In this document: positions 9,879 through 58,930 of the stretch, one piece after another
Layout of the letters: each line of letters begins with the position of its first letter
Numbering within the stretch: position 1 is the stretch's first letter
Source: Spirochaetia bacterium
GTDB lineage: Bacteria > Spirochaetota > Spirochaetia > SZUA-6 > Bin103
NCBI GenBank assembly: GCA_965203515.1
Contig: OZ241907.1
Location: 1,714,578-1,778,577 of the forward strand
Reading direction: 5' to 3'
Length of the DNA stretch: 64,000 nt
Notes under the pieces: generated by a model
Databases searched by the model: none
What the model saw: the letters and a program-made list of their open reading frames with translations, nothing else
What the model was told of the DNA's origin: nothing
Program-made: the position numbers and the translations under genes

Positions 9879-10931
9879 ATGGCATTCGAGTCACGAGTCT
9901 ACGCCCTGCGTATCGAGCCGCACCCCAACGCCGACCGCCTGGAGCTGGCGGCGATCGGCGGCTTCCGTTGCGTCGTCGGCAAGGACAGCTACGTCGACGG
10001 CGACCTGGCCGCGTACATCCCGGAAGGGGCGGTCTGTCCCGAATGGCTGATCGCGGAGCTGGGGCTGGAAGGCAAGCTGGCCGGCAGCAAGAAGAACCGC
10101 GTCAAGGCGGTGCAGCTCCGCGGCGCGCTTTCGCAGGGGTTGGTCTATCCGGTCCGCGACGGGATGATCCGCGGGCGGCAGGTCGCCGAAGGGGACGAAG
10201 TCACCGAGCTGCTGGAGCTGGTCAAGTACGAACCGCCGATCCCGATCTCCATGCAGGGCGAGGTGCGGTCCGCGCACGGCGCCACCCTCCACTACGACAT
10301 CGAGGACTTCAAGAAATACCCGGAGGAGTTCCGGGACGGGGACCCGGTGATGGTCACGGAGAAGCTGCACGGCACGTGGTGCTGCCTGGGCTGGCACGCC
10401 GACCACGGCCCGATCGTCACCTCCAAGGGTATGTCGGACAAGGGCATGGCGCTGCTGATCGACGACGCGAACAAGACCAATCTGTACGTGCGCACGTGGC
10501 GCGCGCATCAGGAGGCGTTCGAGTCGGCGCGCGCCCGCCTTGCCGGCGACGGCCGGCCGTTCTACGTCCTGGGCGAGGTGTACGGCCGCGGCGTGCAGGA
10601 CCTCCATTACGGGGAGCCCAACCCGGCGTTCCGGGTGTTCGATGCGTACCTGGGCGAACCGGGAACCGGCCGCTACCTGAACCCGGAGGAACTGGCGGAA
10701 TCGCTGAGCGATCTGTTTCCGCTGGTGCCGGAGCTCTATCGCGGCCCGTTCAGCCTGGCGAAGCTGCAGGAGCTCACCGACGGCGCCACCACGCTCGGCG
10801 GCGGCCACGTACGCGAAGGCGTGGTCGTGAGGCCGGCCATGGAGCGCGTGTCGCACGCCTGCGGACGGGTGATCCTGAAGAGCGTCTCCGGCAAGTACCT
10901 GACGCGCAAGGGCGGCACGGAGTTCAACTGA
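9879..10931 (+). CDS. RNA ligase family protein (Rnl2/PF09414-like nucleotidyltransferase, motif I KLHGT) with N-terminal tRNA-binding-like OB domain
   Basis: EKLHGTWC matches the KxHG adenylylation motif (T4 Rnl2 KIHGTN). The N-terminus MAFESRVYALRIEPHPNADRLELAAIGGFRCVVG resembles the CsaA/EMAP-type OB fold seen in DraRnl-like ligases. Confidence 0.5.
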   Translation: MAFESRVYALRIEPHPNADRLELAAIGGFRCVVGKDSYVDGDLAAYIPEGAVCPEWLIAELGLEGKLAGSKKNRVKAVQLRGALSQGLVYPVRDGMIRGRQVAEGDEVTELLELVKYEPPIPISMQGEVRSAHGATLHYDIEDFKKYPEEFRDGDPVMVTEKLHGTWCCLGWHADHGPIVTSKGMSDKGMALLIDDANKTNLYVRTWRAHQEAFESARARLAGDGRPFYVLGEVYGRGVQDLHYGEPNPAFRVFDAYLGEPGTGRYLNPEELAESLSDLFPLVPELYRGPFSLAKLQELTDGATTLGGGHVREGVVVRPAMERVSHACGRVILKSVSGKYLTRKGGTEFN

Positions 10932-10955: not shown

Positions 10956-12104
10956 TTACGACGCCTCGCCGGCGAGGCGCCGGATCAGGTCCGGGAGGCT
11001 GACGAAGCGGACGCTGAAACCCGGAAAGTCACGCACCCAGGAGCGTTCCGTGTCCGCAGTCACGACGTAGTTGGCGCCGGTGGGATAGCGGGCGCGGAAG
11101 GCGCGCAGGTTCCGGGGATCGAATCCGCCGGCGCGCCACTTGCACTCCACGGTCACCGGGGGCGCGGCGCGATCGTCGATCACGAAGTCGATCTCATGGC
11201 CGCGCTTGTCGCGCCAGTAGCAAAGCCGACGCCGTTGCAGGCGTCCGAGGTATTCGTTGAGCACGCAGTGCTCCCACAGGGAGCCGCGATCCTCGTCGCG
11301 CAGCCGGTTCCAGCCCATGAACAGGCTGACGAAGCCGGTATCGAAGCCGTAGACCTTGGGCGTCGCCACGATCTCCGTCGCGCGGCGCGTGCTGAAGGGC
11401 CGAACGATCTGCACGACGTGGGTATCTTCGAGCACCTGCAGATAGTTGACGATGGTGGCGCGGCTCACCTCGCACGAGGCGGCGTACCTGGTCGCCTCGA
11501 ACAACCCGCCGCTGGCGGCGAACAACAACTCCACGAAGCGCAGGAAGGACCAGCGCCGTTGCAGCCGGAAGTGCTCCTGGATGTCCCGCGCCCAGTAGGA
11601 GTCGATCCAGTCCTGAAACCCGCGCTCCGGAAACTCGGAAGCAAGGAAGAAGGGGGGCAGCCCGCCGTGCAGAAAGCGGTGATCGATGCCGCGCGGGCCG
11701 AACTCGTGCTCGTCCTGGAGCAGCATCGGCGTCATCCACAGATCGCGCTTGCGGTCGGTGAGCGTATCCCGAAATCGGCGCGACGCTCCCAGTGACGAGG
11801 AGCCGGTAGCGACGATCTGCGTATCGGGATGGTAATCCGCCGCGATCTTCAGCAGCTCGGACGGATTGGGCAGACGGTGTATCTCGTCCAGCACGACCCG
11901 CCGCGCACCGACGTCACGCAGGAAGCTCTCAGGGGACTCCAGCGCGCGGCGGGTGCTCGGCAGTTCGCAGTCGAGGTACTCGACGTCCGGCAGAGACTGA
12001 CACAGGACCGTCTTGCCGGCGCGGCGGACCCCCGACAGCCAGACGACCGACTTCTCGCGCCACAGCTTCTCTACGGCCGCGATCCAGTAGCTTCTCCGTA
12101 CCAT
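10956..12104 (-). CDS. AAA+ ATPase with DUF4143 (AAA_14 family), paralog 1
   Basis: GVRRAGKT Walker A, VVLDEIHRLPN Walker B. Paralogous to the gene at 42406..43734. Confidence 0.7.
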   Translation of the reverse strand: MVRRSYWIAAVEKLWREKSVVWLSGVRRAGKTVLCQSLPDVEYLDCELPSTRRALESPESFLRDVGARRVVLDEIHRLPNPSELLKIAADYHPDTQIVATGSSSLGASRRFRDTLTDRKRDLWMTPMLLQDEHEFGPRGIDHRFLHGGLPPFFLASEFPERGFQDWIDSYWARDIQEHFRLQRRWSFLRFVELLFAASGGLFEATRYAASCEVSRATIVNYLQVLEDTHVVQIVRPFSTRRATEIVATPKVYGFDTGFVSLFMGWNRLRDEDRGSLWEHCVLNEYLGRLQRRRLCYWRDKRGHEIDFVIDDRAAPPVTVECKWRAGGFDPRNLRAFRARYPTGANYVVTADTERSWVRDFPGFSVRFVSLPDLIRRLAGEAS

Positions 12105-14074: not shown

Positions 14075-15730
14075 CTACGATGAGTCCACCTTTCGCGAAA
14101 GATCGGAAGTGAGGCACTCCACCAGGGAGATGGCTGACAGTACGACGGCGGCCGCGAAACCGACGGTGACCTGATCGCCCGATAGGTGCTGACCGTAGTT
14201 ACCGACCGAATGCAGATGGTTCACTATGAGGCTGGTAGTTCTGGTGACATACGTGCTCTGGCGTTGGGCGCGCTCAGAGCCGGTTATGAGCCGCAGTATC
14301 CGGCACTCCCGGCCTGGGGAGTCGTGAGGAATCTTGCCTCGTTCGTCCGGCAGCCTCTCGATTCCTGCGTGCTTCCATTCGTCGAGCCATGCATCGGGTA
14401 GACGGCGGTCAGGTGGGAGCTCGGCGGTCCAGATCAGATGCAGCGCCCGATTGGCAATGCTCCTGATCCAGACGAGTGCACTCTCTGGAGCCGGGACGAG
14501 GTCGCGGATCGCCAAGCGCACGTAGTCGCAAAGGTCACTGTCCACGGATCCCTGCGACACTTGGTCGAGGCGCAGCTCAAGCAGCATCTGAACATGCGTC
14601 TCGAATTTGGCGGCCGTGCCCAGAAGACGGGTCAGGTCGGCAATGGCGGGTGCCTGATCCTGAGCGTAGCGCTGCATCAGGCGACAGGAACTGCGCAGTC
14701 GGTTCCTCGACTGTTGGCCGAACCCTCGCTCCTCCAGTGCTTGCCGCCGCGGCTGAGACAGCTCGGCCAGCGGTATTTCGTCGGCAGTCAGCGCGCCGAG
14801 ATCAGCACGCAATTCGCTGTCGCAATCATCCCACAATGCGTCGAGGAGCTGGCGCGGCCCGTCCAGCACCGCTTCCGCAGCATGATCTATTTCCGATTTG
14901 GAAAGACGTTGTCCGCGGTGTCCGGCCCACAGCCTCTGCAGGAGCGCGCAAACGAGCAAAGGCACCCTTCCTGTCCAGTTGGCTATCTCCTTCCGCACCG
15001 ACTCGTCCAACTCGCAGCCGGCGTCACGGAGCGGCTGCAGGAACGCTTCCAGATCACGGTCGTCGAGCGCGGCCACGCGCACCGGCGTATCGTAGAATAT
15101 CCCCCAGAAGTCCGAGGTCCGCGACTCCTCCGTCTTGCACAGCTCGCGCAACGGCCGCCGGCTGCCGGTGACCAGTCGCAGACTGGTCCTCTGCGCCAGC
15201 GCGCGCAGTTGGTCCCACAGGTTCCGCGTCAACCCGGTACCGGCAAGCGCATAGTCGAAGCCATCGAGCACCGCGAGCAGGCGCACGCCGTCCTTTTCGA
15301 GTTGGTCGAATATGATGCCCAGCACCTCATGCCTGGAAACTTCTTCGAAGTCGTCGAAATACCCCACAAGGTCTGGACAGACCCCCTGCAACGCCGCCTT
15401 GATCTCGTCCGCAAACCGCCGCATGAATTCGTGGTCCGAGGCCGGTACCCCGCGGCGGAGATCGACGTACGCAGCGGTGACATACTGCTCGACCCCGTCC
15501 CGGTAGGTGGCGGCGGCATGGTGCAGCAGGACGGACTTTCCGTAGTGCGCCGGCCCCACGACCGACACGTGATCCGGCGACGGTTTCCGCAGGTGCTTGT
15601 CGATGCGGCTCATGAGCGCTGCGCGGCCCAGCATGGGGGGGACCGAAGGTCCCAGGACTTGGTACGGGTCAGGGTCAGGCATGGCGTATGGCCTCCTGGC
15701 GGGCGCGCTCCACGAGGTCGTCGAAGTCAA
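14075..15730 (-). CDS. STAND-like P-loop NTPase (Arch_ATPase/AAA_16-like) with C-terminal helical domain
   Basis: VSVVGPAHYGKSVLL Walker A, RLLAVLDGFD Walker B, LVTGSRRPL sensor-like. Resembles the ATPase module at the C-terminus of the upstream giant gene. 4-nt gap to the downstream SAM-MTase. Confidence 0.55.
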   Translation of the reverse strand: MTSTTSWSAPARRPYAMPDPDPYQVLGPSVPPMLGRAALMSRIDKHLRKPSPDHVSVVGPAHYGKSVLLHHAAATYRDGVEQYVTAAYVDLRRGVPASDHEFMRRFADEIKAALQGVCPDLVGYFDDFEEVSRHEVLGIIFDQLEKDGVRLLAVLDGFDYALAGTGLTRNLWDQLRALAQRTSLRLVTGSRRPLRELCKTEESRTSDFWGIFYDTPVRVAALDDRDLEAFLQPLRDAGCELDESVRKEIANWTGRVPLLVCALLQRLWAGHRGQRLSKSEIDHAAEAVLDGPRQLLDALWDDCDSELRADLGALTADEIPLAELSQPRRQALEERGFGQQSRNRLRSSCRLMQRYAQDQAPAIADLTRLLGTAAKFETHVQMLLELRLDQVSQGSVDSDLCDYVRLAIRDLVPAPESALVWIRSIANRALHLIWTAELPPDRRLPDAWLDEWKHAGIERLPDERGKIPHDSPGRECRILRLITGSERAQRQSTYVTRTTSLIVNHLHSVGNYGQHLSGDQVTVGFAAAVVLSAISLVECLTSDLSRKVDSS

Positions 15731-19553: not shown

Positions 19554-19567
19554 GGCTATACCGTACG

Positions 19568-19583
19568 TAGCAGAAACCGTGCC
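19568..19583 (-). promoter_or_regulatory. sigma-54 (-24/-12) promoter TGGCACGGTTTCTGCT
   Basis: Minus-strand sequence matches TGGCACG-N4-TTGCW with GG and GC at canonical spacing. It lies 15 nt upstream of the giant ORF start (19553) and 2 nt downstream of the RtcR-like stop (19585-19587). Confidence 0.5.
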
Positions 19584-19584
19584 A

Positions 19585-21081
<1,497 letters not shown>

Positions 21082-21082
21082 C

Positions 21083-22078
21083 TCAGCCGATCGGCTCGAC
21101 CTCGACTACCTCGGAACGCTGGAAGGAGCGGACGCACGCCTCGATGACCAGTTGCGCCTGCAGCGCGTCGACGCCGGACGCGTCGATCCGCTCCGGCGGC
21201 ACGCCCTGGTCGAGTTGATCGACCCAGCGGCCGATGCGGCTGTCGAAGGTCTCGCCGAAGCCCAGCATCCCGCCCAGAAACTGATACGTCTCCGCCTCCT
21301 GGCTCTCCCGCGTGAAGAAGGTGAGGCGCTGGCACGCCTCCTCCAGCAGGAAGCGGCCCTTGGAGCCGGTCACGTCGCAGGTCTCCAGGCCGAAGCCGCC
21401 GCCGGCGTCGTAGCTGCCGGTGAGCGACCCGATCATGCCGCCGGCGAACTCCAGGACGATCTTGGCGTTCGACCAGATGGCGCGGCCCTCCCCCTGCATG
21501 AAGAACGCCGCCACCCGCCGCACGTCGCCGGCGAAGTAGCGCATGACGTCGATCGAATGCGGGTGCAGCGCGCGGATGTGGAACCACGGCGAGGTCTCCA
21601 CCGGGTTGTCGATCCACATGGTCATGCCGATCATGTGCAGCGTCCCCAGCCGGCCCGACTCGACCCACTCCCTGGCGCGCTCGGCGGCCGGCGTGAAGCG
21701 GTGGTTGAGGTTGATGCCGTAGGGCAGTCCCTTGGACGCGGCCAGCTCGACCATCCTGCGCCCCTCGTCGATCCGGTTGGAGATCGGCTTCTCTCCCAGG
21801 ACCGGGATGCCGGCTGCGAGCAGCTCCATGGTCGGGGCGAAGTGATCGCCGCCGTTCTCCTCACCCTTGGTGCAGACGCTGCACGCCGCCAGCTCGATGC
21901 CGCTGGCCAGCATGTCGGCGATCGACGTGAACGCCCGCGCGCCGTGCGCGTCCGCCAGTCGGGAAGCGCGCGCGGCGTCGACGTCGCAGACCGCCGCCAC
22001 GTCGCTCTTGGGGTGCCTGGCGTATGCTTGCGCGTGGCGGGTGCCGATGCCGCCTGCGCCGACGATTCCGATCTTCAT
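21083..22078 (-). CDS. Gfo/Idh/MocA family oxidoreductase
   Basis: MKIGIVGAGGIGTRHAQAY Rossmann N-terminus; GEKPIS motif. Confidence 0.75.
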   Translation of the reverse strand: MKIGIVGAGGIGTRHAQAYARHPKSDVAAVCDVDAARASRLADAHGARAFTSIADMLASGIELAACSVCTKGEENGGDHFAPTMELLAAGIPVLGEKPISNRIDEGRRMVELAASKGLPYGINLNHRFTPAAERAREWVESGRLGTLHMIGMTMWIDNPVETSPWFHIRALHPHSIDVMRYFAGDVRRVAAFFMQGEGRAIWSNAKIVLEFAGGMIGSLTGSYDAGGGFGLETCDVTGSKGRFLLEEACQRLTFFTRESQEAETYQFLGGMLGFGETFDSRIGRWVDQLDQGVPPERIDASGVDALQAQLVIEACVRSFQRSEVVEVEPIG

Positions 22079-30040: not shown

Positions 30041-30553
30041 ATGGACCTGGGATCGCTGCTCGACGGGCTGCTCCGGTCCACGGCGGTCGCGCTGGGCCTG
30101 ATCGGCGTGGTCGAGATCGGCCTGGACCGGCCGGAGGTCCAAACCGACCGTTCCGGGGCGATCACCATCACCGTGCATCTGCACGGCCACGTGACCGATC
30201 AGGTCCGCGATCTGATTCAGAGCTCGGCGCGGGTGGCGATCGATTTCGAGCTCCGGTACTTTCCTCGCACGGGCCGGAAGCTCCGGCTGGTCAGCCGCAA
30301 TCTGATCCGGTTCCACAGCCTGACCGGCCGCTACGAAGTGCGCCGCGGCGATGAGACGGCATCGGTCGCTTCCCTGGAGGAGGCGGCGGAGCTGCTCGGC
30401 TCGGCAACGGTGAAGATCGGGCCGGTCGGCCCGGGGCTCGCGGTCATCAAGGCGCGCGCCTCGCTCCCCGACGTTCACGCCGGAGACATGCCCGGCGCAC
30501 TGTGGTCCGGGGCCGTGCCGAGCACGTCGGCGTTGATCCCCGCGGACCCATGA
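30041..30553 (+). CDS. DUF4390-like protein (commonly precedes sensor kinase/NtrC pairs)
   Basis: Gene position and ~170-aa size. Stop overlaps the HK start (ATGA). Confidence 0.45.
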   Translation: MDLGSLLDGLLRSTAVALGLIGVVEIGLDRPEVQTDRSGAITITVHLHGHVTDQVRDLIQSSARVAIDFELRYFPRTGRKLRLVSRNLIRFHSLTGRYEVRRGDETASVASLEEAAELLGSATVKIGPVGPGLAVIKARASLPDVHAGDMPGALWSGAVPSTSALIPADP

Positions 30554-31698
30554 GAGGCTATGCGGTTGCGCTGATCGCCCTTACCCTGGCCGCGGTCGCC
30601 GCCGTCACCCTGGCGGCGATCGGATCGATCGGGCGGCTCTCCGACCCGGCCGACGCGGTGCGGGCCGCCGCTCACCTGCAGGAGGCGCGCGGCGCGGTGC
30701 GCAACGCCTACGCCGCCGAATCGGCGCCGGCCGCGCGGGCGCTGCTCGAGGAGGCGGCGCAGCAGCTCGACACGGCCGGCGGGCTGCTCGCCGGAGCCGA
30801 GGTCGTGCAGGCTGCGGTCAGCCGCACCGTCCTGGTGACCGTCTTCGCCGCGGCGCTGCTGGGGCTCCTTGCCGGCGCGCTCCTGTGGTTCGGTTCGTTC
30901 CGGTGGGTGATCGCACCCCTGTCCGGTCTGGCCGACCGCATGCAGCGACTGACCGACGCGCCCGCGCCGGTCGAGGTGACGGCTCGCGGGCCTCGGGAGA
31001 TACGCGCGCTGCAGCGCGCCTTCAACCGCCTGGTCACCGCGCTGCGCGACTACCGGGAACGGATCACGGCGATGGAACGCGCCCACATAGGCCGCTTCCT
31101 CACGCACCAGTTCCGTAACTCCCTCACCCCGATCCGCCTGGCCGCCGACGAACTGGCGCGGGCGCCGGCCGCCGATACCCGGTCGATCGCCGACCTGCTG
31201 AGCGGGGAGGCGGCCCGGATGGAGGAGATACTGCAACGGTTCGGCACGCTCTACCGTTTTCCCGAGCCGGAACCGGCCGATCTCGACATCGCCCTGTTGG
31301 CGCGGCGCGTGGCGGCCGGCTATCCCGGTATCCGGGTGGAGGTACCCGGGCATACGGTGCTGGTGCATGCCGATCGCACCCTGATAGAGCAGGCGCTGAC
31401 CAACCTCATCCGCAACGCCATCGACGCCACGGAAGGGGGCGATTACGGTTCCGTCACCGTCCGGGTAACCGACCGGCCGGCGGTGATCGGCGTCCGCGAC
31501 CGCGGTGCCGGGATGACGCCGGAACAGCGGAATCGCGCCTTCGACGACTACTTCACCACCAAGGAGAACGGCATGGGCGTGGGCCTCAGCTTCGTGCGGA
31601 AGGTAGCCGCCGCGCACCGTATCCGGCTGACGATGCGGTCCCGCCCCGGCCAGGGCACGACCGTCGAGCTGGCATTCCCGGCAACCGGCCGCCCATGA
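30550..31698 (+). CDS. sensor histidine kinase (two TM helices, H-box THQFRNSLTPI, HATPase_c)
   Basis: LTNLIRNAIDA N-box, VRDRGAGMT G1, GMGVGLSFV G2. Confidence 0.75.
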   Translation: MRGYAVALIALTLAAVAAVTLAAIGSIGRLSDPADAVRAAAHLQEARGAVRNAYAAESAPAARALLEEAAQQLDTAGGLLAGAEVVQAAVSRTVLVTVFAAALLGLLAGALLWFGSFRWVIAPLSGLADRMQRLTDAPAPVEVTARGPREIRALQRAFNRLVTALRDYRERITAMERAHIGRFLTHQFRNSLTPIRLAADELARAPAADTRSIADLLSGEAARMEEILQRFGTLYRFPEPEPADLDIALLARRVAAGYPGIRVEVPGHTVLVHADRTLIEQALTNLIRNAIDATEGGDYGSVTVRVTDRPAVIGVRDRGAGMTPEQRNRAFDDYFTTKENGMGVGLSFVRKVAAAHRIRLTMRSRPGQGTTVELAFPATGRP

Positions 31699-31708
31699 AG
31701 ACCCGCCC

Positions 31709-33061
31709 ATGAAGACCACCGTGCTGATCGTCGACGACGATGAGAACGTCGGCCGCAGCGTCTCCATGACGCTGGCCCGGCGCGGGATGGAGCCGCGTTG
31801 CGCGTCGCCGTCCGAATGGCCTGCGGCGCTGACCGAAGCCGTCGACGTGGTGCTGCTCGACCTGTACCTGGGCGGCGTCAAGGGCCGCGACGTCCTGGAG
31901 CGTCTGCTGGCGGAGCATCCGCTGGTGCCGGTCATCATCATGTCCGGTCTCGCTTCGGCCGAGGAGGCGGTCGACTGCGTGCGGCGCGGCGCCTTCGACT
32001 ACCTGGAGAAACCGCTCACCGCCGAACGGCTGGCGATCACCGTGCGCAACGCCGCCCGCTTCCGGCAGGTGCGGCTGTCGGTCCTGGCCGACACCATGCC
32101 GGTCTTCGCGTCGCAGAGCATGCGCGCGCTGGCCGAAGACGCGCGCAAGGTGGCGGCCACCGACGCCGCCGTGCTGATCACCGGCGAGAGCGGAACCGGC
32201 AAGGAGGTGACCGCGCGCTACATCCACGGCCTGTCGCGCCGCAGCGGGCAGCCGCTGATCAAGGTCGATTGCGGCGCGTTGCCCGAGAGCCTGATCGAGA
32301 GCGAGCTGTTCGGGCACGCGAAGGGGGCCTTTACCGGCGCGAACGCGGACTATGCCGGCAAGCTGCCGGCGGCCGCCGGCGGCACCCTGTTTCTGGACGA
32401 GGTAGCGGAGTTGCCGCCCACCGCGCAGACACGACTGCTGCGCTTCCTGGACTCGGGCGAGGTGCAGCGCGTCGGCTCGACTGCGGTCACCACGGTCGAC
32501 GCACGGGTCATCGCCGCCACCAACGTCGACCTCGAACAGGCCGTCGCCGACGGCGCGCTGCGCCGTGACCTCTACTACCGCCTCAACGTCATTCGGCTGC
32601 GGATCCCGCCGCTGCGGTCACGGCGCGAGGACATCGCCCCGCTCGCCGACAGCTTCGTGACCTCGTTGGCCGTGCGGCTGGGCGTGCAGCCGCCGGTCCT
32701 GAGCCCGGACGCGTACCGGCGGCTGCGCGCGCTGTCGCTCCCCGGCAACGTGCGCGAGCTCAAGACGATCATCGAGCGGGTGCTGGTGCTGGTCGGCGCG
32801 CCGGTGATCGACGCGGCGCACGTCGAGCGAGCGGCGGCCGGCGGCATGGTCGATGCCGACGACCCCTTCGCCCGCACCATGCCGCTTGCGGAGGCGAAGC
32901 GGCAGCTCGAACGCCGGTACCTGCAGCGCCAGCTCGATCTGCATGGGCGTTCGGTCAAGCGCACGGCAGCGGCGCTCGGTATACTGCCGAACAATCTGAG
33001 TCGCCGCGTGCGCCAGCTCGAATCGCGGGATACGGAAGAGATCGAAGACGGCGAGCCGTGA
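31709..33061 (+). CDS. sigma-54-dependent response regulator (NtrC family: REC + AAA+ + Fis HTH)
   Basis: LIVDDDENV, VLLDLYL, ITGESGTGKE, GAFTGA, LFLDEVAEL. Confidence 0.8.
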   Translation: MKTTVLIVDDDENVGRSVSMTLARRGMEPRCASPSEWPAALTEAVDVVLLDLYLGGVKGRDVLERLLAEHPLVPVIIMSGLASAEEAVDCVRRGAFDYLEKPLTAERLAITVRNAARFRQVRLSVLADTMPVFASQSMRALAEDARKVAATDAAVLITGESGTGKEVTARYIHGLSRRSGQPLIKVDCGALPESLIESELFGHAKGAFTGANADYAGKLPAAAGGTLFLDEVAELPPTAQTRLLRFLDSGEVQRVGSTAVTTVDARVIAATNVDLEQAVADGALRRDLYYRLNVIRLRIPPLRSRREDIAPLADSFVTSLAVRLGVQPPVLSPDAYRRLRALSLPGNVRELKTIIERVLVLVGAPVIDAAHVERAAAGGMVDADDPFARTMPLAEAKRQLERRYLQRQLDLHGRSVKRTAAALGILPNNLSRRVRQLESRDTEEIEDGEP

Positions 33062-42405: not shown

Positions 42406-43734
42406 TCATTCGTCGGGAGGCGCCAACAACCATTCGCAGGCGGGCTGCGCCACGACGCCGGCCGGCAGGTCGTCGGGGATGCCGTCGCGAACGAGCGTCA
42501 GCAGCCGCTTGCCGGCGCCGGGGAACATCGCTCCGGCGGCGGCGAGCGCGCGCAGTTCACGGTTGGCGGTCGCCGCGTCGGAGAGGTCCGCGCAGACCTG
42601 GATCAGTTCCGCTTCGCCGCCGGCGCGCCGGGCCAGAAAGTCGACCTCGAACCCTTCCCGGCTCCGCACGTAGGTGACGTCATACCGGCGCCGTTCCAGC
42701 TCTACCAGGACGGCGGTCTCCAGCGCGTGGCCGACGTTCGCCCGGCCGGTGCGATCGAACAACGGGATCAATCCCGGATCGACCGGATACGCCTTGCGGG
42801 GGTTCACCATGCGCTGGCGCTCCGACCCGGATTCCATCCACACCAGCCGCACCAGGAAGCAGTCTTCCAGATGGGCCAGGAGCCGATGCAGCGTGTCCCT
42901 GCCGATCGCGATGCCCTGCGACCTGAGCGCGGCGTGAAACTTCTCCACGCTGAACATCGAGCCGGCGTTACCCAGAAGGTGACGGACCAGGGCGCGCAAA
43001 CCGACCACGTTGCGGACCTCGTGGCGCTCGATGACGTCGCGCAGCACCGCCACGTCGACGTAGTCGTGGAGCAGCCGGTGCCGCGACGCCGCGTCGAGAC
43101 CCTGCGCTTCCGGGAATCCGCCCGCCTGCAGCCAGTCGAGCAGCGCGCGCTCCACCTGGGACCGTTCTTTCGGGGCAAGAAAGCCCGGTTCCGCCGGGAC
43201 GGGCTGCCGCCGGTGACGCAGGGCCTCCTCGAACGAGAACGGATGCATCACCACCTGCCACGCACGGCCGCGGAGCGCGGTGGCGATCTCCCGCGACAAC
43301 AACGCGGCCGACGAACCGGTGACGAACACCCGCACCCGGTCGGTGTCGAGCAGGCGGCGCACGAACCGCTCCCACCCGGCGACCATCTGCACCTCGTCGA
43401 AGCACCACGTCACCTCGACGTCGTGAAGGTCGGGAAACCGCCGGTAGTACTCTTCCACCGCCAACCCCAGGTCGCGGCCGTCGAGCCCGGCCAGCCGTTC
43501 GTCCTCGAACGACAGGTACGGCAGGCGCTCCCGGGGCACGCCGCGATCGACGAGGTCGCGGCGCATCCGGTGGAGGAAGGCGGTCTTGCCCGCGCGGCGG
43601 ATGCCGGTGACCGCGGTCGCCTTGCCGGCGAACCAAAGCCGGCCGAAGACGCGGCGGGCCGTGTACTCCGGCAGCGGCCGTCGCAGGGAATCGGCGAGCT
43701 GCTCGGACAGGACCCGACGCTGCAGGTCATCCAT
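42406..43734 (-). CDS. AAA+ ATPase with DUF4143 (AAA_14 family), paralog 2
   Basis: GIRRAGKT Walker A, WCFDEVQ Walker B. Strong SD AAGGAGAA 8 nt upstream of the ATG. Confidence 0.7.
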   Translation of the reverse strand: MDDLQRRVLSEQLADSLRRPLPEYTARRVFGRLWFAGKATAVTGIRRAGKTAFLHRMRRDLVDRGVPRERLPYLSFEDERLAGLDGRDLGLAVEEYYRRFPDLHDVEVTWCFDEVQMVAGWERFVRRLLDTDRVRVFVTGSSAALLSREIATALRGRAWQVVMHPFSFEEALRHRRQPVPAEPGFLAPKERSQVERALLDWLQAGGFPEAQGLDAASRHRLLHDYVDVAVLRDVIERHEVRNVVGLRALVRHLLGNAGSMFSVEKFHAALRSQGIAIGRDTLHRLLAHLEDCFLVRLVWMESGSERQRMVNPRKAYPVDPGLIPLFDRTGRANVGHALETAVLVELERRRYDVTYVRSREGFEVDFLARRAGGEAELIQVCADLSDAATANRELRALAAAGAMFPGAGKRLLTLVRDGIPDDLPAGVVAQPACEWLLAPPDE

Positions 43735-48787: not shown

Positions 48788-51922
<3,135 letters not shown>

Positions 51923-51953
51923 CGCCCGTCCTCCCCTGTGACGATGACGAATC

Positions 51954-53021
51954 TCACCGTGCCGGCCCGCCGCTGATCACGTTCGCCTTCCAAAGTTGGC
52001 CCAGAGAGTACTCCTTTAGCCAGTCCTGCAGGCGATCCGGGTCCAGCCGCTCGAAGGCCGACTCGCCATCCCGGCGATCGACCACCACGATGTCTTCCGG
52101 CCGAAACTCGCTGACCAGGTCGGCGGATTGCGTGGAGACGATCACCTGCCGCGCTTCACTCGCCGACTGCAGCATCTCCGCCAGCAGCGTAAGCGCGAAC
52201 GGATGCAGCCCCAGTTCCGGCTCATCGATCAGAATCAGCCGCGGCTGCATCGCGGTCGGCTGCAGAAGCAGGGTGGCAAGGCACAGGAAGCGGAGCGTGC
52301 CGTCCGAAAGCTGAAGCGGTCCCAGCGGCGTATCGGCATCGTCGACGTGGTGCCATTCGAGCTCCATGCGCTCATCGACATCCCTGCGATAGACGAAGCC
52401 GCCGAAGAACGGCGCGGCCAGCCGCACGGCGTCGACGATCTCGCGGTGCTCGTGCGGATGGCGTTCATGGAGCAAGCGCAGGAATGGCCCCAGGTTGGCC
52501 CCGTCCGGCTTCAACCGCAGGTTGTCGCGCACCGCCTGCGGGCAGCGCATGCCCGCAACCTCACTGGTATCGTGAAAGTGATACACCCGCCAGTCCCGCA
52601 TCGCCGGCAGCACGTAAGCCGCAAAGTCGCCGCCCTCGATACTCGCCGCCTGCGCTTCCAGGTGGCCCGACCAAGTCGATCTTTCCGGAAAAACGTGCTC
52701 TCGCGCGAACGCCATTCCGTCCGCCACCGGCTCAAGCGAAAAGCCGTATCGGCGGCTGTTGCCGTTGAAGGACAACTCCACGTCCAGACCCGAAGTCCGC
52801 CGGCGACCGCCGAACAGCAGAGCGTCCGCTCTCCCCTCCCGCTTGACGAACAGTTGGAGTCTCTTCGCGGCAAGTTCGGACACCATCCGAAACAGACTCA
52901 TCAAGTTGCTCTTGCCCGCTCCGTTCGCTCCGACGAGGACATTCAGTCCGCGCAACTCGAAGTCCTCCAGCACCCGAATCGACTTGAAGCCGCGAACGGA
53001 CAGTCGGTCTATCGCAGCCAT
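51954..53021 (-). CDS. AAA_21/ABC-type ATPase (OLD/Abi-like NTPase domain only)
   Basis: [13 protein letters not shown] Walker [14 protein letters not shown] Walker B/D-loop. Internal ATG ([14 protein letters not shown]) chosen. Confidence 0.6.
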
Positions 53022-53207
53022 GTCGTGTCTCTCGCTTCGAGAAGCTGGGCGTCCCATACGCGAATGACGACCTTCGTCGCCGCGACCGTCTCGTGCATCA
53101 TCCTCATTCGCGCCACAGGTACCGACTCAGACTTCGGCGCCGAAGTCCCGCCCCGCCCACAGTCCGACTCTGCCCTCTCCCGCTGCCGGTCATCGCCGCT
53201 AGCGACT

Positions 53208-54323
53208 TCAGTTTCCAGCCTCGACGGAAATGATGCATGCGTTACGTAAGGAAAGACGTTGACGGTGTTGCTCTAGATCGCCTCTCATAACGACCGTTGA
53301 TCTCTGCCTATGGGCCTCCGTCAGTCGCTCGTAATCAGTTCTCTTGGCGTAAACCTTGACCGATTTCCATTGTCCGTCAATAGGCGCCCGCATGGTGACC
53401 ACACCGTCGCTCTCCCATTCCTCGCGATGCAGACGGTGTATCGGTCCGGTCAGAGATATGTCGGGGTGAGGCTCGCGCTCGCGAAACGACCGCGCTGCTT
53501 CCCGCAGGATCGGAGCGTCGGGGTTAGAGAATTCAACGATCTTTCCAGCCGACTTCATCGGCCGTGTACGAGCCCAGGTCATGTCTACATCAAGCGTCGG
53601 AAACGGACTGATCATCCTGTATAGCGCTTCGCACAGGTTCGCGCTAACCCCCTTGTCGACGACTCTCGCAAAGGCTTCTCCGTCACCTGCAACCGTGCTC
53701 TCCGTAGCGCTCCGGGCAGCGTCGAGAGCCTCGATCAGACGTGTTGTCATCCGTCGTTCGATGGGGGCGTCGAATTCCTCAGAGTCTCCGAACAAGGTCG
53801 GAATCGGTGGAGGTATCGAGATCACTAGTGCGACAACGAAACTTCCCTGTTCGGTCTGTCCCAGACGAACTCGGCTCAGAAGGTCGGCCGCCTCCTTGTT
53901 GGCGCCCGCGCGGTACAGTGCCTGCGGCTCACGCAACGAGCAGGCCGCCGCCAAGAGCATGTCACGCGCGCCATCGATGAGGTCGACGCCGTCGTTCACT
54001 GTCAGGCTGCCGTCATCGCTTCCGCCGGCTCTTACCCGCACGACATCACGGTTGGCGTTCACCAAATCGCGGTAGAGGGCGAGTTCGTCGCGTTCGGTTA
54101 CTCTCGTGAATATCTCGATCAGTTGGGCTACGACACTTGCGTAGTCACCTAAACGTTGCGTGCGTGGCAGGATGATCTCAGGCAGCCCCTCTGCGGCATA
54201 AACGTCGGAATGGGCGCCGTATCTCTCATTCGTCTTGGACCAACCCGCAGCCCGCGCGTAAGCCGAAAGCGCATCCGGCGAAATCGCCCGCAAAGCGTCG
54301 CGATCTCGAATATTCACCTTCAT
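53208..54323 (-). CDS. hypothetical protein (lower-GC, within R-M island)
   Basis: Track ORF. ATGA overlap with the upstream DUF4365 gene. Confidence 0.4.
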   Translation of the reverse strand: MKVNIRDRDALRAISPDALSAYARAAGWSKTNERYGAHSDVYAAEGLPEIILPRTQRLGDYASVVAQLIEIFTRVTERDELALYRDLVNANRDVVRVRAGGSDDGSLTVNDGVDLIDGARDMLLAAACSLREPQALYRAGANKEAADLLSRVRLGQTEQGSFVVALVISIPPPIPTLFGDSEEFDAPIERRMTTRLIEALDAARSATESTVAGDGEAFARVVDKGVSANLCEALYRMISPFPTLDVDMTWARTRPMKSAGKIVEFSNPDAPILREAARSFREREPHPDISLTGPIHRLHREEWESDGVVTMRAPIDGQWKSVKVYAKRTDYERLTEAHRQRSTVVMRGDLEQHRQRLSLRNACIISVEAGN

Positions 54324-54850
54324 CGGACGTTCCCTCCTCTCGATCGATCCATGATCAGACGCAAATTTTTGACGTCAAACACGTTCTCATTCGGAATCCG
54401 CACCGTGACAGAAGATCGGTTGTCGGTCTCATCCGCTCCCACCAAGCTCAGCCAGTAGGCACACCGCCTCAGAGCCAACTCGTCGGTCGTAACTTTAATC
54501 CATTGGTCCTCATCTCTGGGTAGATCGAGCACTACGAGCACGCGTGGTGTCTGGGTCTGAATGCGGAGCAGGTCGTAGTTGCGCCGTTTCAACTCAAAGC
54601 GGTAGTGACCATCGCCCACCGGATTCAGATTGACGGTCGCCTTCAACTGCAAGTCGATGGCCGGCCTCATCCGTCCGCCCGAATGAATTCGGAGATCGAC
54701 ACCGTCACGGTCGAAGTCGCAGTCTGCTGTCACGTACCCCGCACCCGCCGCCACGGCGCGCGCGTACACACGGGACAGCGCTTCTTCCCGATCCGCGGGC
54801 GTAAGCAAAGCATCCTTCACACGGCCTCTATATTCCACTGTCATCCACAC
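54320..54850 (-). CDS. DUF4365-like protein
   Basis: Size and context. Lower GC than surroundings. Confidence 0.4.
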   Translation of the reverse strand: MWMTVEYRGRVKDALLTPADREEALSRVYARAVAAGAGYVTADCDFDRDGVDLRIHSGGRMRPAIDLQLKATVNLNPVGDGHYRFELKRRNYDLLRIQTQTPRVLVVLDLPRDEDQWIKVTTDELALRRCAYWLSLVGADETDNRSSVTVRIPNENVFDVKNLRLIMDRSRGGNVR

Positions 54851-56490
54851 AGCTCCCCGGAAATCAGTTTCGGCAAGAGCGCGTCGAGCTGCGCCATCAG
54901 ATTACGGGATGCATTCTGGTTTGCCAGAATACCCTCCATGTACGGAGACACCAAGTCATCGAACATGCCCGCTACTTTCGTCGGAGGGATAATCGTCGTT
55001 GCGACTGTGAACGTGTCACGTGTTATCGTGTCGAAAATCGTACCATGGGTTCGGGTGGTAAGCTCCTTGATCGACATTCGCAGGTTCCAATAGGTGAATA
55101 GATCCGGGTACCCGTCACGTCCACGAATTCCATAACACGTCTGGTTCATTGCCATCGGGACCCCTAAGCATGCTAATTTGCCTACGGTACCTCGCGCCGT
55201 AATGATTGTCGTCCGAGCAGGAAGGATCCGAGTGGAACTATTGGCGACGCCCAGCGGTGATATGGTACGCTCGGTGTCGATAGCGAAAACGCCGTTGAAC
55301 GAAGGATCGTCCTTTGCGGTATACCAGGGAATATCACCATCCCAGTATTCCGGCACGGACGTTCGGGGAGTGCCTCCGTTGATGATCTCAACGATATTCG
55401 CCAAGGCTCCAATCTCCCAACCGTAAGGTACGTTCGCTCCGTTGTTCGACGCCACGAAGCGGTCAGGGAACAGGTCGGCGATATCTTTGGGCAGGCCGGT
55501 GTCGCGATCTTCTTGCTTGGCCCATACCGGCTCAAAATCGACAAACCACGACATGAACAGCGCTCGTGCCGTTGCATCCAGAGTCTCGTTCATGAGGCAG
55601 TATAGCTTAATTCTTTCGTCAAGTGGTTCAAGTACGCGGACAATGGCGCGCTGTACGTCGAGGGGCGGAACCGGTATCGATATGGATCGAAGATAAGAGA
55701 TCGGCTGCGCTATCGAGGGGACGCCGACCTGGGACGTGTTCGCGAGTAACTTGTGCCGACCTTCGGGTGTCTTGAAGTAGTACGCCACGAACTGCGGGAG
55801 CACCTGACGTCGATCACAGCGCATGTAGAACTGGCTTTGAGAAATGACGTAACGATCGTAGATTGAATTCTCCGGGACATAGGCGACCTGGCCGATGGTA
55901 CCTCGATGAGTGAATACTACGTCGCCTCGTGCTACGTTCGCGTTCCGCAGCCGCTCTGCATGTTCTTCAGTGATGAAGTTGAATCCCGGTCTGTCATCGA
56001 CCATCATTCCGTGGAGATGCTGGCCGCTGATTATCGGTACGCCCGTTGGTACGAACGTGTTCACGCGAATGGATGACCCGAAAGGACCCATCGCGACCTT
56101 CTCGGCGATCTCCTCAATGCGCTTCTCTTGCCACTTCACCCGCCGAGACCGTTCCTTTTCTATAAGAGCCACGTAGTCCCTTTCAATGCGGGAATGAAAG
56201 CTCTCCGGCAAGCGTGCCCAGTCGTGCGCTTCAACCAGGAACGGAACCGTGGAATCGCGCAGTGCTTCCTCGAAATCGGCCAGCCGCGTAATGTCGATCT
56301 TGGCGAGGCCGGGGCCGCGCAGCACGAGGTCGAGGTCGCTGCCGTCGTGGCTCTCGCCGTTCACGCGGCTGCCGTAGGCCCACACTTCCACCTCGGGCAG
56401 GTGCTCCTGCAGCAGCGCTTCGAGCATGGCGCGATGGCGAGCCGACAGATGCAGCGTGCCGGCGGGCCGCTCACCCGGTGCGTCAGGCAT
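54841..56490 (-). CDS. hsdS: in-frame fusion of minimal nucleotidyltransferase (MNT antitoxin-like) domain and type I R-M specificity subunit
   Basis: ATG 56488-56490. AYGSRVNGESHDGSDLDLVL (MNT GSx9-11DxD), then with no intervening stop KVAMGPFGSS...two TRDs...KLISGELCG (HsdS). Track ORF 54841..56721. Confidence 0.55.
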   Translation of the reverse strand: MPDAPGERPAGTLHLSARHRAMLEALLQEHLPEVEVWAYGSRVNGESHDGSDLDLVLRGPGLAKIDITRLADFEEALRDSTVPFLVEAHDWARLPESFHSRIERDYVALIEKERSRRVKWQEKRIEEIAEKVAMGPFGSSIRVNTFVPTGVPIISGQHLHGMMVDDRPGFNFITEEHAERLRNANVARGDVVFTHRGTIGQVAYVPENSIYDRYVISQSQFYMRCDRRQVLPQFVAYYFKTPEGRHKLLANTSQVGVPSIAQPISYLRSISIPVPPLDVQRAIVRVLEPLDERIKLYCLMNETLDATARALFMSWFVDFEPVWAKQEDRDTGLPKDIADLFPDRFVASNNGANVPYGWEIGALANIVEIINGGTPRTSVPEYWDGDIPWYTAKDDPSFNGVFAIDTERTISPLGVANSSTRILPARTTIITARGTVGKLACLGVPMAMNQTCYGIRGRDGYPDLFTYWNLRMSIKELTTRTHGTIFDTITRDTFTVATTIIPPTKVAGMFDDLVSPYMEGILANQNASRNLMAQLDALLPKLISGELCG

Positions 56491-56932
56491 CGCCCGTCCC
56501 GTCGATGACGGCAGCCAACCTCTTGGCGTCGGCGATGAAGGCCGGGAGCAGCTTGAGGGTCGCCTCGGCGAAGCCTTCACCGTAGTCGTGGGCAGTGTCG
56601 TTACGGTTGTCGCGGTACTCCAGCCAGCGCTCGCAGGCGTCCGCCGGCAGCAGGCAGTGCTTGGCGGCGTGGCGGAACACGTCCTTGAACACGAGGCGGT
56701 CGGCCTGCCGGTTGCTGGCAAACCAGGGGCGCAGGCGCTTCTTCAGCAGCTTGCCGCTCTGTTCCAGCACCAACTCGAACTCCTTGACGCAGGCAGCGCG
56801 GTAGATGTCGCGGAGTACGTCGTCGCCGGCAGCCTGGTCGCGGAGTCTGTCGAGCGCCTGCTCCAGGGTCCTGATGCAACGCTTCAGATAGGTGGTGTCT
56901 ATCGCCCTCTGTTCCATTGGGTCCTGGCTCAA
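56483..56932 (-). CDS. hepT: HepT-like HEPN toxin (nucleotidyltransferase substrate-binding protein family)
   Basis: RNDTAHDY (Rx4HxY HEPN motif). Immediately upstream of the MNT domain. Confidence 0.65.
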   Translation of the reverse strand: MSQDPMEQRAIDTTYLKRCIRTLEQALDRLRDQAAGDDVLRDIYRAACVKEFELVLEQSGKLLKKRLRPWFASNRQADRLVFKDVFRHAAKHCLLPADACERWLEYRDNRNDTAHDYGEGFAEATLKLLPAFIADAKRLAAVIDGTGDA

Positions 56933-57074
56933 TCAACCGTGCGCCGGCTACCGAGCCGACGAATCTCGCACGACCGAGCGCTTCAACATACCATGGCGAA
57001 CGCCCCCCATTCACCGGCCGGCGGGCACCGCGGCGCTTGACGTACCGATCTCCGCACGTACAGTACACGTACTC

Positions 57075-57356
57075 ATGGCGAGTGAACGGATTACGAACTA
57101 CACTGAGGCCCGTCAGAATCTCAAGTCGTTGATGGACAGCGTCATCGAGGACGGCACACCGGTGATCATCACGCGGACGACAGGCGACCCGGTGGTCATG
57201 CTGGCCAAGATGGAGTACGACGCCATGATGGAGACCCTTCACCTGCTGCGCTCGCCACGAAACGCGACACGCCTACGCGACGCGATGGCCGGCGTCGAAG
57301 CGGGTAACGTCGTCCACGCCGGCCTCATCGACGGGGAGATCGCCGAGCGGCCGTAA
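57075..57356 (+). CDS. Phd/YefM family antitoxin (apparently orphan)
   Basis: MASERITNYTEARQNLKSLMDSVIEDGTPVIITR resembles a YefM N-terminus. No toxin ORF downstream. Confidence 0.6.
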   Translation: MASERITNYTEARQNLKSLMDSVIEDGTPVIITRTTGDPVVMLAKMEYDAMMETLHLLRSPRNATRLRDAMAGVEAGNVVHAGLIDGEIAERP

Positions 57357-57480
57357 ACCGGGAGCGCACCGGCCGTCATCGCGTTCTCCCGGCAGGGCTT
57401 GGCAGGGTCGTCCGCCGGAACGCGCGGCTGATCAAGGAGTCACCCATTCGTCGTAGCCACGTACGGGGTCACGTGTTGGA

Positions 57481-58074
57481 TCACGGGGAGAAATGTCTGA
57501 GGACACGTACCGCTTGGCTCAAAGTTCCGCCATGAGAGCGCAGCCACTGAGGAACATCGTTTGGGTCAACTGTTAGCCATGCCGTATCTCTACCAGCGCG
57601 ACCGCCGTGCTGTGACTGGATTTCACCCGAACGCCACTTCTCCATCATTATCGACTTTGGGACAATCCAGCAGTGGGCGTTGAATGGTGCTATTCCGAGC
57701 CAGATTCCGATGTGGTAATTCTGGTCACGAAGTTGCTGAAACTTGTACGAACCAGCCTTCCACAGTGTGGAAAATTTGATCTCTACGCGGACGCCGCCAA
57801 TGATCCTGTCAGCTTCGCTATCCGGGGACTTGGCTACGTCGAAGTTCTTTGCGGCGAAGAAACCCGCGACCAGTTGCTCGCCGATCTTTCCTATCTGGCG
57901 AGACGGCCGTGACTTGATCCAGGCGAAGGGACTCCCGGCCCATGACATATCCCCATCTTCATAATCAGCATACAGCGAAGTGGCGATCCCCGTAAGCATC
58001 CTTACGTCCGGATCGGCAATGTTGTAGCTATTGTCCATGAGTTTCCTGAAACAGCGTGGGCTGAGCATCATCAT
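57481..58074 (-). CDS. hypothetical protein, candidate restriction endonuclease partner of the adjacent MTase
   Basis: Markedly lower GC. Co-oriented and overlapping the MTase 3' end. No recognisable motifs. Confidence 0.3.
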   Translation of the reverse strand: MMMLSPRCFRKLMDNSYNIADPDVRMLTGIATSLYADYEDGDMSWAGSPFAWIKSRPSRQIGKIGEQLVAGFFAAKNFDVAKSPDSEADRIIGGVRVEIKFSTLWKAGSYKFQQLRDQNYHIGIWLGIAPFNAHCWIVPKSIMMEKWRSGEIQSQHGGRAGRDTAWLTVDPNDVPQWLRSHGGTLSQAVRVLRHFSP

Positions 58075-58930
58075 CGTGTAGAACGAGGCTTTCGCATCCG
58101 TCGAACTCGACGCCGTACGGCGCCAGGCGCTTGCTCATGACCCGTATCGCATCCGGGTTGTCGTCGATCAGGATGAAGTCGCGGCCGAGCCGCGCAGCGG
58201 CCTCGCCCAGCGTTCCGCTGCCCGCGAAGAAGTCGATCACCAAGTCGCCGGGATGGGTGTGCACGCGGACGATTCGCTCGATGATGCCGAGCGGCTTCTG
58301 CGTCGCGTAGCCGGTCTTTTCCTTGCCATTGGGACTGACGATCGTATGCCACCAGACGTCGGTCGGCGTCTTGCCTCGGGCTGCCTTTTCGGCACCGACC
58401 AGGCCGGGAGCCAGGTACGGAATCCGGTCGATCTCGTCGTACCGGAAGGTGTAGTTTGCCGGATCCTTGGCGTACCAGAGGATGTTGTCGTGCTTGGCCG
58501 GCCATCGGGACTTGGAGCGGCCGCCGTAGTCGTAAGCCCAGATGATCTCGTTGATGAACGACTCGCGACCGAAGAGTTCGTCCAACAGCACCTTGCAATA
58601 GTGGACTTCCCGATAGTCCACGTGCAGGAAGAACGAGCCGTTCGGTTTGAGCACGCGCCGCGCCTCGCGCAACCGAGGTTCCAGGAAGCCGAGGTAATCG
58701 TCGAACGCGTCGGCATAGCCGCTGGAGCCGAGCTCGATAGTCCGATAGCGCTTGCCCTGGAAGCCGGTGCGGTCGCCGGTTACCTCATCCCGCACCGTGC
58801 TGATGGTCGTCCTGGACTGCGTCCGCCCGGTATTGAACGGCGGATCGATATAGACGAGCGCCGCCGACTCGTCCGGCACCGACGCTAGCGCTTCGAGATT
58901 GTCGGCAAAGATCACCTTGCCCATACTCAA
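58028..58930 (-). CDS. beta-class DNA methyltransferase (N6A/N4C; motif IV DPPF precedes motif I FAGSGT)
   Basis: YIDPPFNTG, DFFAGSGTLGEAA. Confidence 0.8.
   Translation of the reverse strand: MSMGKVIFADNLEALASVPDESAALVYIDPPFNTGRTQSRTTISTVRDEVTGDRTGFQGKRYRTIELGSSGYADAFDDYLGFLEPRLREARRVLKPNGSFFLHVDYREVHYCKVLLDELFGRESFINEIIWAYDYGGRSKSRWPAKHDNILWYAKDPANYTFRYDEIDRIPYLAPGLVGAEKAARGKTPTDVWWHTIVSPNGKEKTGYATQKPLGIIERIVRVHTHPGDLVIDFFAGSGTLGEAAARLGRDFILIDDNPDAIRVMSKRLAPYGVEFDGCESLVLHDDDAQPTLFQETHGQ

Follow-up and report, generated by a model that had tools for sequence, protein, structure and literature searches.

In E. coli and Salmonella, RtcR, an enhancer-binding protein of CARF-AAA+-HTH architecture, acts on the sigma-54 promoter of the divergent rtcBA genes, with an upstream activating sequence (UAS) and an IHF site in the intergenic region. 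RtcR without its CARF domain is constitutively active, which makes CARF a negative regulatory module (PMC9650030). RtcR-like CARF-AAA+-HTH proteins have also been linked to restriction-modification (R-M) rather than rtc genes, and predicted to be sigma-54 activators of the genes downstream (Makarova 2014, PMC4012209); RtcR homologs likewise head co-directional defence superoperons, including CoCoNuT, and UAS binding has been proposed for them (Bell 2024, PMC11090510). In the available portions of these two papers the regulation is deduced from gene order and domains, and neither promoter, stop-codon position, operator nor short leader is reported. Here we describe a locus of this class in a 64,000-nt stretch of a Spirochaetia bacterium contig (OZ241907.1; the whole stretch is hereafter called the window), in which an RtcR-like activator gene is followed by a three-gene operon, its cargo, and a candidate sigma-54 promoter lies in the short gap between them. 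We consider it likely that this site is the sigma-54 promoter of a restriction-like defence operon, and that it forms part of a conserved cassette consisting of activator, enhancer, promoter and cargo.

The window shares with RtcR-rtcBA a predicted CARF-AAA+-HTH protein and a probable sigma-54 promoter, but its target is co-directional with the activator and starts 31 nt past the activator stop codon, its candidate enhancer lies inside the activator coding sequence, and its cargo is a methyltransferase-ATPase-nuclease operon. With the RtcR-like regulators of R-M and CoCoNuT loci it has in common the protein class, a 5′ position ahead of co-directional defence genes and the predicted sigma-54 role; its cargo of a methyltransferase-specificity-ATPase fusion, an ATPase and an Rpn-type nuclease is not among the systems named in the available portions of PMC4012209 and PMC11090510. 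PspF, which acts on pspA, is an AAA+ HTH bacterial enhancer-binding protein (bEBP) with a UAS beside its own gene that allows both target activation and autoregulation, a layout resembling the tandem operators upstream of most homologs of the window activator, some of which stand beside divergent sigma-54 promoters. PspF, unlike the window activator, lacks a sensor domain and is under the control of PspA, and the window lineage has lost the upstream operator pair. The ftr enhancers of Caulobacter FlbD provide a precedent for sigma-54 enhancers in unusual places, including neighbouring coding sequences. Distant NtrC enhancers similarly show that a sigma-54 enhancer can work at long distance (distance tolerance: PMC4641369). 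In contrast to both, the window enhancer would sit in the activator's own open reading frame (ORF), at a fixed distance of ~340 bp, and would move with it as a unit. Literature searches, in which part of the sources were accessible only as excerpts, found no paper describing the promoter, the operator or the short leader. Whereas the regulator class and its link to R-M were already predicted, the stop-abutting promoter, the candidate enhancer within the activator's codons and the near-leaderless cargo appear to be new.

On the minus strand the order of elements is CTGACCCAA, TGA, TGGCACGGTTTCTGCT, ACGTACGGTATAGCC and ATG AAC CAT GAC. The activator stop TGA occupies 19587-19585 and the promoter motif opens on the very next base, not 2 nt after the stop as an earlier, sequence-only reading of this DNA had it; the same reading's distance of 15 nt between the end of the motif and ATG 19553 of the 1292-aa ORF agrees with the coordinates. 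Its claim of a near-consensus sigma-54 motif at exact spacing is borne out directly as GG-N10-GC, with the -24 GG at 19583-19582, the -12 GC at 19571-19570 and exactly 10 nt in between. Compared with the consensus TGGCACG-N4-TTGCW, TGGCACGGTTTCTGCT matches 11 of 12 specified bases. The gap from activator stop to cargo ATG measures 31 nt and holds the promoter on the correct strand. Scanning between activator and cargo, we detected a sigma-70-like promoter on neither strand, and the coding (minus) strand has no terminator; a single plus-strand terminator-like site is within chance. We found no hairpin-like symmetry at the promoter element, and no Rfam family matched anywhere in the window.

The sequence-only reading had cautioned that the motif might score no better than random matches in GC-rich DNA, and this caveat holds. 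The 16-nt consensus with at most one mismatch occurs once in the window, at the promoter site, where 0.62 matches are expected, and 44 of 100 dinucleotide-preserving shuffles hold at least one such match; the looser pattern TGGCAC-N6-TGC is seen three times against 0.68 expected. Under an approximate sigma-54 position weight matrix (PWM), the promoter ranks first of ~128,000 positions on both strands (16.3 bits, runner-up 12.6), and the other sigma-54-like matches, at 59653 and 29108, reach at most 12.6 bits and overlap long ORFs. We attach significance to the promoter because of its placement behind the activator gene and its conservation, not because of the motif alone.

That conservation became visible with homologous loci. 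A first scan of genome contigs, using the complete activator, was dominated by generic sigma-54 activators, to which the word FGHEKGAF is common, and yielded one true full-length relative (L001). An alignment of the CARF domain only, run against metagenome contigs, gave 80 loci, 70 of them with a full-length gene and at least 120 nt downstream. The element TGGCAC-N5-TTGC follows the activator stop in most of these 70 loci, often as TGA TGGCAC like the window, and a promoter element was present at this place in about 60 of the 70. Matches of at least 14 bits numbered 48 in 6,650 post-stop positions and 20 in the other 1.35 million, an enrichment of strong sigma-54 motifs of ~490-fold in the post-stop region. 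Among 60 motif-bearing loci (59 homologous loci and the window), the promoter begins immediately after the stop in 30, and in a further 24 it is offset by 1-4 nt. When the region searched was widened, 69 of 71 loci, the window included, proved to have a motif scoring 10 bits or more. A logo of 61 loci has its information confined to -26..-20 (TGGCACG) and -15..-11 (TTGCT), leaving the spacer and flanks free. Close relatives, at 99% and 96% identity, carry a 16-mer identical to that of the window and differ at two spacer bases downstream, and relatives at 84-86% identity carry TGGCATGGTGCTTGCT and TGGCACGGATCTTGCT at the promoter. This family-wide conservation of the -24 and -12 elements, together with the lack of a sigma-70-like promoter or terminator between the genes, supports the earlier proposal of a sigma-54 promoter for the downstream gene, and we think it probable that the promoter is functional and served by the adjacent activator.

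A variant was also apparent among the homologs: in L086, L089, L093, L097, L137 and L145 the -12 element after the activator stop is TTGA rather than TTGC, in an otherwise perfect TGGCACG-N4 context. Five of these six loci precede the same HsdR-type cargo, the first gene differing in L089, and the variant may be one inherited change.

The activator is a sigma-54 activator by its domains. Pfam Sigma54_activat (PF00158) matches residues 180-346 (E = 6.5e-71), AAA_lid_14 is also matched, and the GAFTGA loop is intact within GHEKGAFTGA (found at 20319). The PADLOC model RtcR_PspF2--CARF_AAA_HTH covers residues 4-496 (E = 1.7e-197) and CARF4 of the same database matches as well (E = 6e-10); the RtcR_PspF names reportedly originate from a CARF classification paper of 2020. 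Pfam HTH_8 was recorded for many activator homologs, and the window activator has no match to it at E <= 0.001. An AlphaFold model of the N-terminal domain reached a predicted local distance difference test score (pLDDT) of 74-88 over residues 1-100, with a mean of 65.6, and the top Foldseek matches of this model were the CARF proteins Csm6, Cam1, Cdn1, VC1899 and Can2 (probability <=1.00, E >= 3e-3). Searched by sequence with the CARF profile, the PDB gave no match. Homologs of the activator are 67-99% identical, and those with a named source come from Gammaproteobacteria, Acidobacteria, Thermoanaerobaculia and Myxococcales.

We rejected the designation of the activator as RtcR itself. The RtcR equivalog NF038308 is its best NCBIfam match (residues 65-486), at 351.6 bits, below the cut-off of 650, and rtcBA is not adjacent. 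No RtcB or RtcA family was found among the called genes of the window, the neighbours being an oxidoreductase gene upstream and the methyltransferase-ATPase operon downstream. The proposal that the activator controls the downstream operon rather than rtcBA is thus upheld by the absence of an adjacent rtcBA, the failed RtcR cut-off and the RtcR_PspF2 match; it is less new than that reading implied, as the role had already been predicted (PMC4012209, PMC11090510).

On its upstream side, the activator begins with a GTG 2 nt past the stop of a GFO/IDH/MocA oxidoreductase gene, an arrangement that is the same in the 99% and 96% relatives. We compared this junction (window 21081-21085) with L161, L162, L163 and L164. 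In the 84-86% relatives, HicB-like (UPF0150), AAA_16 and SulP genes are inserted between oxidoreductase and activator, and these relatives retain the intergenic region with its operators. The junction behaves as a variable hot spot, and the upstream region belonging to the activator itself is lost in the window lineage.

A plus-strand two-component pair (30502-33061), made up of a HAMP/HATPase kinase and a response-regulator activator (31709-33061) with GAFTGA intact, supplies another sigma-54 activator at a distance of 12 kb. The window thus holds two intact GAFTGA activators, and such proteins have no known role in the absence of sigma-54; because of the second, two-component activator, the host probably uses sigma-54.

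To locate a possible enhancer we turned to the activator gene itself. A codon alignment of 71 activator genes showed a single sharp island of synonymous-site conservation at window residues 381-392, with the codons AAG AAA nTT TCT GCn nnn GCA ArA AAy CTT. Hosts of widely differing G+C encode 61 of 69 Ser by TCT here, 63 of 70 Ala by GCA and 54 of 57 Leu by CTT. The third-position entropy of these three columns is 0.30-0.64 bits, compared with a mean of 1.76 (standard deviation 0.24) over 213 conserved four- and six-fold degenerate columns, and they are three of the four lowest-entropy columns among the 213, the fourth being a serine of the two-fold AGY family. Low-entropy serine columns at S184, S225 and S483 were discarded on the same ground of AGY codon use. 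We also rejected a reading of the island as a TTTCT-N9-AGAAA dyad, which fits only 18 of 71 loci because an Arg/Lys codon varies, and replaced it by the operator ACAAGA-N2-TCTTGT.

This operator is of the same palindrome type as the sites that lie upstream of the activator start in most loci, whose consensus is A(C/T)AA(G/A)AAnT(C/T)TTGTA; the candidate sites for binding of the activator are of type ACAAGAAATCTTGT. Of the 57 loci in which the motif search located two upstream operators, 47 have them in tandem, 20 nt apart, and an independent recount found at least two of them in 51 of 67 loci with enough upstream sequence. A PWM built only from sites upstream of homologous activator genes, applied to both strands, gave 97 matches in the internal 100-nt region versus 68 in the remaining 1.44 million positions. 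The motif occurs inside the activator coding sequence in 63 of 71 loci and is paired there, 19-21 nt apart, in 34. In 49 of 55 loci, 333-343 nt separate the centre of the promoter-proximal intragenic operator from the -24 GG downstream, and the pair overall lies ~335-365 nt upstream of -24. In the window, the palindromic operator is kept as B1, which at 12.4 bits is the best operator-PWM match in the whole 64 kb and whose exact pattern is expected 0.02 times per window. The sequence-only reading had held that any enhancer must lie inside the activator coding sequence; a conserved operator pair indeed sits there, at codons ~381-392, and the window keeps one good copy of it, with the second, B2, degenerate. 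We lean towards the interpretation that the intragenic operators are the promoter's enhancer.

Divergent promoters give the operator a more familiar setting. In 10-15 loci a strong sigma-54 motif faces away from the activator gene, its -24 GG mostly 55-180 nt from the upstream operator pair. This is the canonical enhancer geometry, known from rtcR/rtcBA and pspF/pspA; in L094, a weak case, the pair is 258-278 nt from the divergent -24 GG. At L152 (3780-4190) there is a frameshifted remnant of a second activator comprising residues 371-501 only, which leaves operator pair, 3′ end and promoter, followed by an HsdR-type gene; the intact cassette upstream has a Schlafen/AlbA_2 first cargo. It is because of the divergent-promoter geometry and this remnant that we tie the operator to sigma-54 activation. 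Divergent promoters of 15-19 bits were found in L086, L122, L135, L136, L138, L139, L147, L148, L156 and L157, ~100-200 nt upstream of the activator start on the opposite strand, and some cassettes would drive genes in both directions from shared tandem operators.

We next consider the start of the cargo. Homologs of the 1292-aa protein, down to ~55% identity, begin MN(H/Q)D...AAL..R(S)D(I/L)R.LIE, and from this conserved N-terminus ATG 19553 is the real start. It lies 17 nt past the -12 C and has no Shine-Dalgarno sequence. Across loci, the distance from the -12 C to the next ATG has two peaks, 14 nt (16 loci) and 17 nt (9 loci, of which the window is one). Of 42 such near ATGs, 32 open the long cargo ORF, compared with roughly one in three expected in frame by chance; some loci have a second in-frame start behind GAGG, and others have 30-140 nt leaders. 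Sigma-54 transcription usually starts ~12 nt after the -12 C, so family leaders would measure ~2 or ~5 nt and lack a Shine-Dalgarno sequence. For the window, the -24/-12 geometry predicts a leader of ~3-7 nt, also without Shine-Dalgarno. The near-leaderless transcript put forward in the sequence-only reading therefore gains a start codon backed by a conserved N-terminus and by the 17-nt mode of the family, its transcription start being a prediction from geometry, and we regard a leaderless-like transcript as evenly poised between true and false.

Table 1. Positions of the promoter, activator, candidate operators, cargo genes and second defence island in the window
Feature	Position	Strand	Remarks
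Probable sigma-54 promoter TGGCACGGTTTCTGCT	19584-19569	minus	16 nt; top PWM match in the window, kept in homologous loci
Predicted transcription start zone	19556..19560	minus	11-14 nt past -12 C, standard -24/-12 geometry
Activator gene, 498 aa	19585..21081	minus	CARF-like N-terminus, sigma-54 AAA+ domain, C-terminal DNA-binding region
Candidate intragenic operator B1 ACAAGAAACTTTCTG	19940-19926	minus	codons D381-S385; ~350 nt upstream of -24 GG
Candidate intragenic operator B2 GCAAGAAACGTTCTC	19920-19906	minus	codons A388-L392; right half CGTT, not TCTT
Cargo gene 1, 1292 aa	15675..19553	minus	fusion of N6 methyltransferase, type I specificity-like target recognition domain and AAA_16 (STAND-like) ATPase
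Cargo gene 2, AAA_22/AAA_16 ATPase (Pfam)	14075..15682	minus	probable start ATG 15682, M at residue 17
Cargo gene 3, 615 aa	12223..14070	minus	C-terminal Rpn/YhgA-type PD-(D/E)XK nuclease domain
HsdR	48788-51922	minus	second defence island
AAA_21 ATPase	51954-53057	minus	second defence island
HsdS fused to nucleotidyltransferase domain	54841-56721	minus	second defence island
N6_N4 methylase	58028-58930	minus	second defence island
YhgA/Rpn-like protein	58974-59933	minus	second defence island
HsdM	60090-61754	minus	second defence island

Together, the elements observed, their positions and their conservation suggest a mechanism in which the steps of binding, induction, transcription start and leaderless translation are predicted. 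By analogy with RtcR, the CARF domain would keep the AAA+ ring inactive until a ligand or partner arising from infection or RNA damage relieves it. Activator dimers on the tandem ACAAGA-N2-TCTTGT operators would then nucleate a hexamer, while the sigma-54 holoenzyme would wait as a closed complex on TGGCAC-N5-CTGC just past the activator stop. As in the general bEBP mechanism, a DNA loop of ~340 bp would deliver the hexamer to the closed complex, and ATP hydrolysis would open the promoter. RNA would begin ~5 nt before the cargo ATG and, being essentially leaderless, could be translated in leaderless mode. Transcripts reading through from the activator gene would offer ribosomes no Shine-Dalgarno sequence at the cargo ATG and would be translated poorly, and good translation of the cargo may come only from the sigma-54 transcript.

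Several observations weigh against this mechanism and against the promoter behind it. The motif by itself is not beyond chance in this GC-rich window, and no rpoN gene is present in the window. The base at -15 is C instead of T, and the resulting CTGC form of the -12 element is that of the Klebsiella nifH promoter, where closed complexes are weak. The absence of a terminator means that read-through from upstream could express the operon too. On the side of the enhancer, the upstream operator pair is missing in the window lineage because the activator start abuts the preceding gene, and B2 is degenerate, scoring 3.8-5.1 bits where the family consensus is GCAAGAAATCTTCTG, so that the enhancer may act less strongly. 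With a leader of 5 nt, the transcript would not be leaderless in the strict sense. Finally, an enhancer ~340 bp away within a coding sequence is unusual.

Part of these observations could be accommodated by a vestigial promoter in a cassette that is decaying in the window lineage, with read-through from the oxidoreductase and activator genes accounting for most expression of the operon and the site contributing little. The activator start 2 nt after the upstream stop, the loss of the upstream operator pair together with its intergenic region, the degenerate B2, the CTGC variant and the lack of a terminator between the genes would all fit such decay. However, the promoter is identical in the 99% and 96% relatives though neighbouring spacer bases vary, the activator ORF is intact with all catalytic motifs present, B1 is the top operator match in 64 kb, and read-through RNA would reach a cargo ATG that has no Shine-Dalgarno sequence and be poorly translated; we hold decay to be unlikely. 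The site could also act as a roadblock or insulator, where the closed complex mainly stops read-through into toxic cargo and initiation is secondary. It abuts the stop codon in half of the loci, no terminator separates activator from cargo, and sigma-54 holoenzyme binds stably without initiating, at many intragenic sites in E. coli according to the available part of PMC4591121. Yet the site always points into the cargo and is always paired with a dedicated activator gene and operators, and blocking and promoting are not exclusive roles; a mainly blocking site seems to us distinctly improbable.

With ~0.6 such matches expected per 64 kb, the site might be a chance match, and as the cargo switches right after it, marking the cassette boundary, it might be conserved as a recombination junction or an RNA structure and have no sigma-54 function. 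Neither idea accounts for conservation that falls exactly at -26..-20 and -15..-11 with the spacer free, for the ~490-fold post-stop enrichment, or for similar motifs driving divergent genes beside the same operators, and an RNA structure would sit poorly with the lack of hairpin-like symmetry and of any Rfam match. We judge a site of this kind to be highly improbable, and just as improbable a real promoter that is served by another host activator, such as the response-regulator bEBP at 31709-33061, in place of the CARF protein. That second activator is encoded 12 kb away and enhancer-binding proteins can act at distance (PMC4641369), but the promoter accompanies the CARF activator gene across many phyla and many different neighbourhoods, and no operator for a different regulator is evident.

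Cargo gene 1 matches Pfam N6_Mtase (E = 2.4e-27) and AAA_16, and PADLOC MTase_I (E = 3.2e-43) and Specificity_I (E = 5.4e-12). The ORF of cargo gene 2 opens at TTG 15730; its likely ATG, at 15682, overlaps gene 1 by 8 nt, the same as in L162. Cargo gene 3 begins 4 nt past gene 2 and matches Pfam Transposase_31 (E = 3.4e-39) and the NCBIfam Rpn family TIGR01784 (68.1 bits, cut-off 52.1). We considered the operon as a canonical type I R-M system and rejected this, as the operon has no HsdR, its methyltransferase and specificity parts are fused with AAA_16, and an Rpn-type nuclease is present. MADS was also rejected: NCBIfam antiphage_MADS2 reached 32.3 bits against a cut-off of 720, and the PADLOC mad2 and mad5 matches were weak.

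Elsewhere, the first gene downstream of the activator belongs to one of many types, including three kinds of type I HsdR, AAA_15/21 ATPases of NsnB/AriA type, methyltransferase-specificity-ATPase fusions, PDC-M09A and others. HsdR is the cargo in most loci, and a methyltransferase-specificity-ATPase fusion like that of the window follows the activator in L139, L162 and L165. Since the cargo varies from locus to locus, the promoter element travels with the activator and not with the cargo. At least eight activator homologs and homologs of the methyltransferase-ATPase cargo were found on equal-sized contigs (24329, 1119460, 22345, 7272, 23940, 257366, 59176 and 38295 bp). This suggests that the methyltransferase-ATPase cargo is a recurrent partner of the activator, a pairing confirmed directly for L162, L165 and L139 only. 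In L120 (9500-9650), ~32 codons resembling the usual HsdR N-terminus follow the promoter, and an AAA_15-type ATPase gene lies 145 nt past the stop, which suggests that the cargo was replaced by recombination within the 5′ end of the old cargo.

Seen across ~60 related loci from many phyla, the layout looks like a portable, signal-induced defence switch. Constitutive expression is the usual assumption for most anti-phage systems, and little is known of how defence islands are turned on. The question of the CARF signal becomes testable with a promoter and a candidate operator that are conserved from Proteobacteria to Acidobacteria. These findings further suggest induced rather than constant production of restriction subunits (HsdR in most loci), and induced restriction bears on autoimmunity control and on cargo exchange in defence islands. 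More tentatively, and with rather less confidence than we have in the enhancer, the activator, the codon-embedded enhancer, the stop-abutting promoter and the near-leaderless start may make up a self-contained, host-independent cassette that moves between phyla with interchangeable defence cargo. If so, the DNA could loop over the ~340-bp spacing unaided by host bending proteins, initiation in leaderless mode would not depend on Shine-Dalgarno pairing specific to the host, and cargo translation would be limited to sigma-54-initiated transcripts, a gate on toxic defence genes at both transcription and translation.

Beyond the operon lies a PDC-S01 candidate defence gene with AAA_14 and DUF4143 (12104..10956, minus), and convergent with it, on the plus strand, an Rnl-type RNA ligase gene (9879-10931). 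An RNA ligase also stands at the far end of the island in L163, and the occurrence of an RNA ligase beside an RtcR-like regulator is suggestive. A second AAA_14 and DUF4143 gene was found at 42406-43734. Farther along the window is a second defence island (48788-61754, minus), in which a canonical type I R-M system is accompanied by additional genes (Table 1), and G+C drops to 0.56-0.62 at 52-58 kb.

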